A DNA stretch of 64,000 bases from Alphaproteobacteria bacterium (GTDB lineage: Bacteria > Pseudomonadota > Alphaproteobacteria > CAAHEQ01 > UBA3637), in the NCBI GenBank assembly GCA_017559525.1, contig JAFYRI010000012.1, positions 15,164 to 79,163 on the forward strand. The letters are read 5' to 3'. The notes below the pieces were generated by a model. It was not told the origin of the DNA and did not search any database. It saw only the letters and a program-made list of their open reading frames with translations. Made by a program: the position numbers and the translations under genes. Position 1 is the first letter of the stretch; every line of letters begins with the position of its first letter. Below are positions 11,942 through 14,080 of this stretch, piece after piece.

Positions 11942-12018
11942 CGGGGCGTAGCTCAGCCTGGTAGAGTACTTGGTTTGGGACCAAGGTGTCGCATGTTCGA
12001 ATCATGTCGCCCCGACCA
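11942..12018 (+). tRNA. tRNA-Pro (anticodon UGG)
   Basis: Acceptor stem CGGGGCG/CGCCCCG. Anticodon stem-loop CTTGG-TTTGGGA-CCAAG. T-loop TTCGAAT. CCA end. Confidence 0.85.
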
Positions 12019-12245
12019 ATAGAAAAAAAGCGGAAGTTTATACTTTCGCTTTTTTATTTTTTGTAAAATTAAAATTTCTATATTTTACAATTGGATAATA
12101 TAATTGTTTTTATTTTACCATGTGTCCTTGAATATCAAGTTATGTACTAATTTTGAACAATAAAAGTATACTTTTTTAGATAAAAATATACTTTTATATG
12201 ATGTGAGTTTGTATATTTGCACATATGGTTACGTTTTAATTTATT

Positions 12246-13787
12246 TTACTTATTTAAATTAATGTTCCATGGTTGAGCATATTGTTCAATCCAACCGAGG
12301 TCCTTATCTCCAAAGGCAGAATAATTCGTATAAATTTTCCAATATCCATTGTCTTTATTATATTGAATATATAATGCCATATAATATGAATAATGAGCTT
12401 TTTTATTATTGTGAAAATCTATTCCATCTTTATTTAATCTAACAGAATATACATACTTAGTGAAAACATTATTATCAATTATGTATGCTGTATCTTTTTT
12501 GTAATGTTTAGAAAAATCAACGGGAAGATATGTTCTTAAAATATCTAATGCTTTATTTACATCAAGTGTATTGGCAAATTCTTTATTATAAATTTTTATT
12601 TCAACAGCTCCCAAGAATTTACCGTGAGTTGGGTCTTTTTCTAAATATAAAATATTTGTATCATCCGTTTCTTTTGTTAAAGACCAATCTATTCTTGCTT
12701 TTTCTTCTACCTCTAATGCCTTTATTCTATCATCATTTATCTTTTTTTTAAAATTAACGACACTATCAAACGAATCTCCAATCTTTGGATGGTTTTCAAT
12801 ATTTATAATCTCTGATATATGTAATTGTTTTTTAGACACTTCCTTAATAGTGTCAATATTTTCAATTTGTTTTGTTTCTTTTGTCTTTATTTTACCTTGA
12901 TGTATTCCTGTATATAATCCAAACAAAATAAAAAATATAATAGCTAAAATAAATCTTTTTTTACCAAATAGTTGCTTATTTCCTATTGGGGTAATAAGAA
13001 AACCCAAAATTCCATAGCAAATACCAGATATTACTGACGCTTCATTTGTAGATATAAACATTGGGACAGATAACATCATTATAAAACCGATAAAGTATCT
13101 TAAAAATGTAAATTTCGTAGTTGTGTTTGTTTTTATATTTTTAGATTCTATTAGTAATCTAATTTCTTTTTTAGCATCATCATATGCTTGTTGTAATTCA
13201 GGTGTAATGAGTTTCTGACTATCTAAATATTCATCATACATATCCACTTCATCTACATATGAACTAAGAATAGTGTTTATAAATGCTACAATATATTTTA
13301 TTACATTTTCATCGGCTACAATATTTTTAGATTTATTTCCTGATTGTAATATAAAAGAGTTTTTGGCAGATATTTTACAAGCTGTTAATTTATCAACTTT
13401 AAATTCAAAATTTCCTTTCTCCGCAACAAATACAACTCTTTTATTTGTAATTATTAAATCACCATCAATAAATTCTCTTACATTTTCTCTTATTGGAGTT
13501 CCTTTTCTTGCTCCTTGATGTATAGTTAGACCTTTTGCTATTCTTACACTTGTTCCTGCATAACCTCCTGAATATCTTACAATTTTTTCTTTATCATTAT
13601 ATATAAATATTTTAGAAGCATAAACAATAAATTCTCTTTTTTGTAAAGCAAAACCGTCATAATAAATTTCAGGAAACCCCATATTTAATATAAACGGTAA
13701 TATATCAGCATATTCATTTGCTTTATTGACTTTTACAACTTCTAAAACATCATCTTCTGTAAGTTGTAGGTGTGGTTTCATATCCAT
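12246..13787 (-). CDS. membrane protein with an N-terminal bacterial-PH-like domain, a central 3-4 TM block and a C-terminal extracytoplasmic domain
   Basis: 513 aa. DGDLIITNKRVVFVAEKGNFEF resembles bPH/GRAM-type PH domains. Hydrophobic block FLRYFIGFIMML...ILAIIFFILFGLY. DNA is extremely AT-rich. Confidence 0.45.
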   Translation of the reverse strand: MDMKPHLQLTEDDVLEVVKVNKANEYADILPFILNMGFPEIYYDGFALQKREFIVYASKIFIYNDKEKIVRYSGGYAGTSVRIAKGLTIHQGARKGTPIRENVREFIDGDLIITNKRVVFVAEKGNFEFKVDKLTACKISAKNSFILQSGNKSKNIVADENVIKYIVAFINTILSSYVDEVDMYDEYLDSQKLITPELQQAYDDAKKEIRLLIESKNIKTNTTTKFTFLRYFIGFIMMLSVPMFISTNEASVISGICYGILGFLITPIGNKQLFGKKRFILAIIFFILFGLYTGIHQGKIKTKETKQIENIDTIKEVSKKQLHISEIINIENHPKIGDSFDSVVNFKKKINDDRIKALEVEEKARIDWSLTKETDDTNILYLEKDPTHGKFLGAVEIKIYNKEFANTLDVNKALDILRTYLPVDFSKHYKKDTAYIIDNNVFTKYVYSVRLNKDGIDFHNNKKAHYSYYMALYIQYNKDNGYWKIYTNYSAFGDKDLGWIEQYAQPWNINLNK

Positions 13788-14033
13788 TTTGACCTCTTAA
13801 ATATAATTTTAATAGTAAAAAATTATCACAAATATTAAAAAAATTCAAGCAAACAGTTCAATATCAATATCTAAAATCCTTCCAAACAATATGACTAACC
13901 ACTACTTGATTGGATGTGGAATGTTGCACACATCATCCTGCATTTTTCACAACTAATTGTAAAACAATGATAATTTTATTAAATCTAAAGACGCTTTTTA
14001 AACGTTATATTTTTCCACATCATCTCTGACAAT

Positions 14034-14080
14034 GACGACCATTAGAAAAAAAGACCTGTTTTATACTGGTCTTTTTTTAT
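14034..14080 (+). repeat. degenerate direct repeat of the tRNA-Pro 3' end plus its terminator (attR-like)
   Basis: GACGACCATTAGAAAAAAAG-hairpin-TTTATACT-hairpin-TTTTTTT matches CGCCCCGACCAATAGAAAAAAAG-hairpin-TTTATACT-hairpin-TTTTTT at 12005-12050. No gene precedes it on this strand. Confidence 0.4.

Follow-up and report, generated by a model that had tools for sequence, protein, structure and literature searches.

We analysed 64,000 nt of DNA (hereafter the window) from an Alphaproteobacteria bacterium (CAAHEQ01; UBA3637; assembly GCA_017559525.1, contig JAFYRI010000012.1, positions 15,164-79,163) and focused on a 2.0-kb segment, here called the islet, that begins directly after a tRNA-Pro(UGG) gene, carries one cargo gene encoding a 513-aa protein (X513) and ends at a second copy of the tRNA 3' end (Table 1). 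X513 is the sole supported open reading frame (ORF) of the islet, as a preliminary description of this DNA had stated. The same description rightly held the enclosed DNA to be more AT-rich than its flanks: the GC content of 12019-14035 is 25.1%, the minimum over 620 overlapping windows of 2017 nt (mean 35.5%, s.d. 3.1%), and the GC content at third codon positions of the cargo gene is 13.4%, the lowest among 52 ORFs of at least 150 aa. Low GC runs on to about 14600, and the right composition boundary is less sharp than the repeat boundary described below.

Two direct copies of a 45-nt repeat, at 12013-12057 (CGACCAATAGAAAAAAAGCGGAAGTTTATACTTTCGCTTTTTTAT) and 14036-14080 (CGACCATTAGAAAAAAAGACCTGTTTTATACTGGTCTTTTTTTAT), bound the islet, with 33 of 45 positions identical (73%) and a spacing of 2023 nt. 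A degenerate repeat after tRNA-Pro had been proposed before; it is real and significant, but its coordinates had to be shifted to those given here. The 18-mer CGACCAWTAGAAAAAAAG has only two sites in the 64 kb even when three mismatches are allowed (0.20 expected), and the gapped pattern TAGAAAAAAAG-N6-TTTATACT-N5-TTTTTT, which ignores the stems, was found twice against 0.00 expected (100 shuffles). Each copy consists of an A-run, a single hairpin with TTTATA(CT) in its loop and a T-run, and not of the two hairpins first described. The 12 mismatches between the copies sit almost wholly in the stem arms and leave each copy able to fold: copy 1 at -16.2 kcal/mol (z-score -5.6) on the plus strand and -11.3 on the minus strand, copy 2 at -13.0 kcal/mol (z-score -4.7), with z-scores of -4.4 to -5.6 over both copies and both strands. 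Both copies combine a G+C hairpin with a U-tract on either strand, as predicted intrinsic terminators do, and copy 1 also appeared in the terminator scan; it would stop the tRNA-Pro transcript and, on the opposite strand, that of the cargo gene.

The second copy begins with a displaced tRNA 3' fragment in direct orientation, CGACCA plus 11 more nt (14036-14053), of which the tRNA-derived part is 6 nt; the likeness of the CCA and its preceding bases to an acceptor end, remarked on earlier, is borne out, CGACCA being the last 6 nt of tRNA-Pro. That this copy lies after no gene on its own strand also agrees with the ORF list, which holds no plus-strand gene 5' of it. Its hairpin was seen in the window strain only. 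Just before the distal CGACCA, the last part of the right islet arm, CACATCATCTCTGACAATGA, is a degenerate likeness of the tRNA-Pro 3' region and mimics tRNA-Pro positions 58-71; because of this mimicry, the reconstructed attachment site of the incoming DNA (attP) would resemble the tRNA-Pro 3' half followed by CGACCA and a terminator. A two-sequence fold of the right arm revealed no covariation. Beyond copy 2, segment 14081-14204 aligns to a non-coding unit of about 150 nt (a mini-element, see below) located 3' of tRNA-Pro and its terminator in the relatives L021, L110 and L111, and holds a third, very degenerate tRNA-Pro 3' end, AATTATGTTGATTTGACAACA, at 14184-14204, whose GCATGTT matches tRNA positions 50-56. 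Since the DNA downstream of copy 2 is thus the decayed post-tRNA-Pro mini-element of relatives, copy 2 appears to be the ancestral tRNA-proximal junction. This segment shows apparent tandem accretion, with the newest insertion nearest the tRNA, as in the tycheposon island model (10.1101/2020.12.28.424599).

Table 1. Coordinates of the features at the tRNA-Pro locus (window numbering) and of tRNA genes with mini-elements in relatives.
Feature	Coordinates	Strand	Description and evidence
tRNA-Pro(UGG)	11942-12018	+	intact, CCA encoded, predicted integration target; ARAGORN, Rfam RF00005 (61.9 bits)
attL-side repeat copy 1, CGACCAATAGAAAAAAAG	12013-12030	+	last 6 nt of the tRNA and terminator lead-in
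Islet-borne predicted bidirectional terminator	12024-12055	+	hairpin GCGGAAG-TTTATA-CTTTCGC at 12031-12050, A-run to T-run; terminator scan, fold
Left non-coding islet arm	12058-12245		AT-rich, no supported ORF; ORF list, alignment
Cargo gene X513	12246-13787	-	513 aa, intact; AAGAGG ribosome-binding site before ATG
Right islet arm	13874-14035		conserved counterpart at the right end of the L118 islet; blastn, alignments
attR-side repeat copy 2	14036-14080	+	putative displaced native CGACCA and native terminator, hairpin GACCTG-TTTTATA-CTGGTC, orphaned
Decayed mini-element, ancestral tRNA flank	14081-14204	+	alignment with L021, L110, L111
tRNA genes with units just downstream	L080 12426-12499, L083 958-1046, L084 10223-10299, L089 12205-12294, L092 16588-16661
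Further tRNA genes with units just downstream	L099 13264-13353, L031 14951-15028, L046 14967-15041, L110 12721-12797, L118 2637-2713

The view of this segment as inserted DNA is supported by evidence that is indirect yet convergent and that comes mainly from relatives. A GTDB scan with the 201-aa flanking protein returned 137 relatives, all of them metagenome-assembled genomes (MAGs) of gut or rumen Alphaproteobacteria, in which the tRNA-Pro neighbourhood is mostly non-syntenic; only L021 has a tRNA-Pro nearby, with a different terminator. The 177-aa/201-aa gene pair 5' of tRNA-Pro occupies two loci in several MAGs (L025/L035, L051/L053, L033/L038 and others); it forms a paralogous family and is therefore a poor synteny anchor. 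The informative loci were obtained via the glutaredoxin-like (Grx) flanking protein. Among them, L111/L112, L113 and L114 represent the same species, as they encode an identical Grx protein, and their mutual identity is 98-99.6%; yet they are unlike each other directly after tRNA-Pro. The downstream side of tRNA-Pro is rearranged in every relative examined.

Within this sister species, we identified a filled and an empty site. In L111/L112, tRNA-Pro ends in ...CCCCGACCA and joins ATTATAAAAGAACCGCTGTTTGGCGGTTC, its own native terminator, directly. In L114, the tRNA-Pro end ...CCGACCAAT is followed by AGTTGAAAGCGGAAGTTTATACTTTCGCTTTTTT and 2.7 kb of further DNA, which closes with GTCAAT, a second CCGACCAAT and TATAAAAGAACCGC..., and only then comes the native terminator. 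Positions 13445-13453 of L111 align both to 9279-9287 and to 11984-11992 of L114, with a flank identity of 98-99%; hence, relative to L111, L114 has a 9-nt duplication of CCGACCAAT at the CCA end and has lost none of the recipient sequence. The L114 insert encodes an R.Pab1-type endonuclease and an N6-methylase, that is, a restriction-modification system. The pair shows insertion exactly at the CCA end of tRNA-Pro.

The same proximal end recurs with other cargo. The window, L113, L114 and the JGI contig L118 have one and the same proximal 26-mer, AAGCGGAAGTTTATACTTTCGCTTTT, while native tRNA-Pro terminators vary between lineages (GAACCGC... in L111, GCCACCC... in L021 and L110, GACCTG... in copy 2 of the window). 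Because this hairpin is common to islets with other cargo and native terminators are lineage-specific, copy 1 probably came with the islet, and for the same reasons copy 2 would be the host's own displaced CGACCA and terminator. At L113 7509-13848, the same site and proximal hairpin precede genes for an N6_N4 methylase, AbiTii, a ResIII/RE nuclease and an SNF2 helicase; this island measures at least 6.8 kb and extends past the fetched DNA, its far end and any integrase lying outside the view. In L118, read as the reverse complement, a tRNA-Pro(CGG) is followed by three mini-elements, each ending ...CGACCA, and then by an islet starting CGACCAATATCAAAAAGCGGAAG..., whose cargo, in the orientation opposite to that of the window, is a 369-aa membrane protein with an HNH motif. 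The right end of this islet matches window 13874-14053 (blastn, 73.5% over 185 nt, including a near-identical 55-nt block); the shared right end finishes ...CAACGACAACCA, and the 22-mer TGTGGAATGTTGCACACATCAT of the right arm was found in the window strain and L118 only. L113 and L118 have at least 330 nt of non-coding left arm in common, and the left arm of the window departs from the other members just past the terminator. The distal joint lies at the same ...CGACCA position in three islets (window, L114 and L118). These three are also the fully visible ones (2.0, 2.7 and 1.8 kb); all have clean ends and intact, differing cargo, and none of the three holds an integrase. Neither the proximal hairpin nor the right-arm core had a match in scans of viral contigs. 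Judged from these alignments, the islet is a member of a small family with shared ends and exchangeable cargo.

We therefore consider it likely that 12019-14035 was inserted site-specifically at tRNA-Pro, with attL at the tRNA and attR at copy 2. Under this model, horizontally acquired DNA would have recombined site-specifically into the very 3' end of tRNA-Pro(UGG), with a crossover in or beside CGACCA, and would have borne an attP mimicking the tRNA-Pro 3' end plus terminator; for the window itself, we infer a crossover within or just after CGACCA. After insertion, the bidirectional terminator of the islet (copy 1) would follow the tRNA, while the CGACCA and terminator of the host (copy 2) would have been displaced 2 kb downstream, where they would now terminate nothing. 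The model predicts an empty attB junction of ...ATCATGTCGCCCCGACCATTAGAAAAAAAGACCTGTTTTATACTGGTC... (also given as ...GTCGCCCCGACCATTAGAAAAAAAGACCTG...) and a circular attP junction of ...CCACATCATCTCTGACAATGACGACCAATAGAAAAAAAGCGGAAGTTTATAC.... The likeliest way for the islet to have moved would be in trans, by a tyrosine integrase encoded elsewhere, in the manner of a cis-mobilizable element (CIME), and later spread from strain to strain might have occurred via homologous recombination in the flanks; for mobilisation in trans, we regard the chances as even.

The preliminary description had likewise placed attL at tRNA-Pro and attR at about 14040, and this part stands on the relatives, the ends, the flank and the composition; its proposal that the integrase had been lost is unproven, as all three fully visible members are devoid of one. 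Inside the islet there is no integrase, since its only ORF, X513, has no recombinase domain, nor is any integrase fragment detectable there. Recombinase domains were also absent from the called genes of window 2246-23787 and from ten further ORFs of typical integrase size (277-417 aa) within 28174-61737. With three complete family members lacking an integrase, non-autonomous elements are favoured, and the absence fits them at least as well as independent loss.

Loss would be the history if the islet were the remnant of a once autonomous tRNA-Pro island, in which an internal deletion spared one cargo gene and the two ends. Decaying elements and partial tRNAs beside tRNA genes are well documented (10.1101/2020.12.28.424599; Islander, PMC4383910), a larger parent may exist given the extent of the L113 island, and the left arm of the window, far shorter than the arm shared by L113 and L118, is consistent with truncation. 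This history is nonetheless unlikely: it needs three independent tidy deletions, in the window, L114 and L118, each removing the integrase while leaving clean ends and intact cargo, and the islet retains no detectable piece of an integrase. We hold it improbable, and clearly more so, that a recombinase-free hot spot produced the arrangement through homologous recombination in tRNA-Pro and a microhomology joint at CGACCA. The very short duplicated tRNA part (6-9 nt), the rearrangement of the region 3' of tRNA-Pro in all relatives examined and the failure to find a recombinase would suit such exchange, but three independent islets share the distal joint at ...CGACCA, nothing of the recipient was lost in L114 relative to L111, and the window and L118 have a conserved element sequence before the joint that resembles the 3' half of the tRNA, which is what an attP should look like.

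Hardly credible, finally, is the reading without any insertion, in which the copies belong to a common terminator family or are alike by chance and the AT-rich gene is native. An A-run, a hairpin and a T-run make up the generic shape of a bidirectional terminator in AT-rich genomes, which inflates the similarity; however, two copies in 64 kb stand against 0.00-0.20 expected, the non-generic parts (CGACCA, TAG and the loop TTTATACT) are common to both, copy 2 stands at the end of no gene, the hairpin of copy 1 accompanies unrelated cargo in other genomes, and the composition is the extreme of the window. Several findings do weigh against site-specific insertion as we describe it. No empty allele, with tRNA-Pro abutting 14036 onwards, was found for the window lineage, either by exact-protein look-ups of both flanking genes, which returned only the same strain, or by a pattern scan of JGI metagenomes for the tRNA-Pro 3' end plus terminator lead; the contig of the closest relative, L117, stops 7 nt past the tRNA. 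We identified neither a recombinase nor an excised circle or helper element. The duplicated tRNA part, only 6-9 nt long, falls outside the three usual crossover subsites (PMC4383910), and the right end of L114 is unlike that of the window, so that the ends are conserved only in part.

Imperfect 26-nt inverted repeats lie in the two arms of the islet, at 12067-12092 and 13955-13980. In the Logan sample SRR12529248, we observed three contigs with 30-nt overlaps at exactly 12070-12099 and 13956-13985, flanking X513. These breaks look like graph branches and hint at a co-occurring allele whose content between the two arms of the islet would be different. As their cause, we rejected an inversion of the cargo by way of the repeats, since the breaks share 7 nt beyond the repeat core. 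The motif WTATACTTTT was likewise dismissed as an arm-type site, being unenriched (3 found, 1.2 expected).

The cargo gene is intact and looks expressed; it encodes a membrane protein whose PH-like domain is cytoplasmic. X513 comprises a PH-fold N-domain (about 40-180), a helical transmembrane part (about 225-296) and an alpha/beta C-domain (about 320-510). The N-domain displays the seven-stranded beta-sandwich and C-terminal capping helix that define the PH fold; the C-domain, of about 190 aa and extracytoplasmic, has no detectable relatives of known fold. As in bPH-domain membrane proteins, a PH fold precedes membrane helices; unlike them, X513 matches no Pfam bPH model and has the additional C-domain. 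It belongs to no family in Pfam (bPH models included), NCBIfam, PADLOC (0 matches) or PHROGs (0 matches), and searches of PDB sequences, phages and plasmids were empty except for two weak plasmid matches that cover only part of the query (13-28%). A profile search gathered 2312 relatives, in which the two domains frequently occur apart; relatives of the N-domain include fusions to Mrr_cat and NERD nuclease domains, and one remote relative, P0125, has a weak Pfam bPH_3 match beside an Mrr_cat nuclease domain. An Alphaproteobacteria MAG from ruminant-gut metagenomes has an identical protein, annotated as hypothetical. At the tRNA-Pro site, X513 was found in this strain only: all nine contigs read with it align to the window at 99.96-100%. 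The closest homologues (L004 10001-11578 and L120 629-2200) are 52-56% identical and lie away from tRNA genes.

As X513 occupies the cargo position that restriction-modification, Abi and HNH genes share, an envelope-associated accessory or phage-exclusion function is our best guess, weakly held. A role in defence in particular is doubtful, though worth entertaining: counting against it, X513 has no match in the defence database PADLOC, and the L004 homologue is the last gene of a glycosyltransferase cluster, which makes a surface-polysaccharide role equally possible and a cell-surface role for the X513 family a possibility.

A second type of structure occurs at the 3' ends of tRNA genes. In the window, tRNA-Thr(UGU) (6331-6406) precedes a tandem pair of 192-nt non-coding units that are 96.8% identical (window 6331-6839 with the tRNA). 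Each unit has a terminator, a degenerate T-arm in inverted orientation, 9 nt that repeat tRNA positions 49-57, a core of about 95 nt that is conserved, and a 19-nt copy of positions 58-76, the copied tRNA 3' end coming with its terminator; the core lies exactly between the copies of 49-57 and 58-76. In relatives, the same core also stands 3' of tRNA-Pro, where the copies on either side of it have tRNA-Pro sequence instead. Such mini-elements are non-coding, measure 140-220 nt and contain several helices with compensatory changes; an Rfam search by E-value of 6000-15000 returned the two tRNAs only and no family for the mini-elements. The 66 tRNA genes on 110 sequences (the window and 109 loci) include 13 with a perfect downstream copy of their last 17 nt, some in tandem, at a distance of 135-370 nt in 12 cases and of 1,397 nt in one (L070). 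At least nine kinds of tRNA carry such a copy, with Gly, Ser, Met, Gln, Thr and Pro represented, and a significant inverted copy of the cognate T-arm directly follows the terminator in 10 of the 12 units analysed.

The mini-elements may be a gene-free, tRNA-targeting family; they could be what is left of att sites, in minimal form, or else small elements, mobile or structured. One conventional integrase with sequence specificity is hard to invoke, since the units carry the cognate T-arm as an inverted copy and the cognate 3' end as a direct copy for at least nine tRNAs. That the islet and the mini-elements belong to one unrecognised mobility system of gut Alphaproteobacteria, which targets tRNA 3' ends and places gene-free or single-cargo units after tRNA genes by a mechanism reading the target itself, is a long shot; if true, it would fit a structure-, single-stranded-DNA- or RNA-guided recombinase, or a target-duplicating replicative process. 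In L021, the closest GTDB species, 2340-3769 contains tRNA-Pro, the different terminator, a mini-element with a truncated tRNA 3' copy and a further gene; this last gene, beyond the mini-element, encodes a phage T7 tail-fibre N-terminal domain and suggests phage-derived DNA at the tRNA-Pro site of L021.

On a larger scale, the closely related contigs L101-L109 (83-93% nucleotide identity), obtained via the 191-aa right-flank protein, have tRNA-Thr almost directly followed by the gene of that protein, window 6850-14303 being missing. The 7.45 kb missing from the L101 lineage hold the HD protein, p222, p177-p201-grx, tRNA-Pro and the islet; the absence was compared at L101 6397-6436, L106 1234-1307 and L102 2739-3046. 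We rejected this segment as a larger, 8-kb island, as L110 and L111 keep the order tRNA-Thr, HD protein, p177-p201-grx, tRNA-Pro. Because these more distant relatives keep the window order, deletion or translocation in the L101 lineage is probable. The HD-domain protein gene (825 aa, ORF 6848..9325, minus strand) contains a 69-70-nt tandem duplication at 8609-8747, 98.6% identical, which encodes repeated ...APSYIL.KDGNTFSDNTLSHDN... peptide units.

CIMEs are bounded by att sites, have no recombination or transfer genes and are presumed to move by an integrase acting in trans or by accretion. The islet resembles them in its att-type repeats, one at each end, and in its lack of genes for recombination or transfer; it differs in that no cognate autonomous element or integrase was identified for its family, in that the islets are much smaller, and in cargo that looks like exchangeable single defence-type modules. 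CIMEs and other non-autonomous integrative elements are reviewed in PMC5704250 and catalogued in ICEberg 2.0 (PMC6323972). In common with the Islander type of island, the islet has an intact, regenerated tRNA at one end, a displaced direct 3' fragment at the opposite end, a foreign composition and tandem accretion at its tRNA. Unlike such islands, it has no internal integrase, is 2 kb long with a single gene, and has a repeat that reaches into the terminator, which the islet replaces with its own; moreover, its displaced tRNA part consists of 6-9 nt at the CCA end and does not derive from the usual crossover subsites, which are the anticodon loop, the T loop and the T/acceptor junction (Hudson, Lau and Williams 2015, PMC4383910). 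Islands integrated at tRNA genes are reportedly also treated in Williams 2002 NAR 30:866. Tycheposons of Prochlorococcus, which carry a tyrosine or serine recombinase and replication genes on 10-20 kb (10.1101/2020.12.28.424599), are similar in integrating at a tRNA at the proximal end of a variable island, in forming arrays parted by partial tRNA copies, in leaving degenerate remnants, in cargo that includes defence genes, and in a small host genome with apparently few other mobile elements. The islet has neither a recombinase nor a replication module, and its hosts, Alphaproteobacteria of the ruminant and human gut, differ in phylum and habitat. Apart from the missing integrase, it is an ordinary tRNA-linked genomic islet, and CIME-like.

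The islet itself is a textbook phenomenon, and its confirmation mainly validates the spotting of a degenerate att repeat. What it adds is a set of very small, integrase-less islets in an uncultured gut and rumen alphaproteobacterial clade, which bring their own tRNA terminator and swap defence-type cargo. The analysis also puts forward X513, from an unannotated family of PH-domain membrane proteins with about 2,300 detectable relatives, as a candidate for such an accessory or defence gene. The mini-elements, which are abundant at the surrounding loci, merit separate study if they are mobile in their own right. With shared ends and defence-type cargo, the 3' end of tRNA-Pro would thus be a predictable place for new accessory or defence genes in these MAGs.

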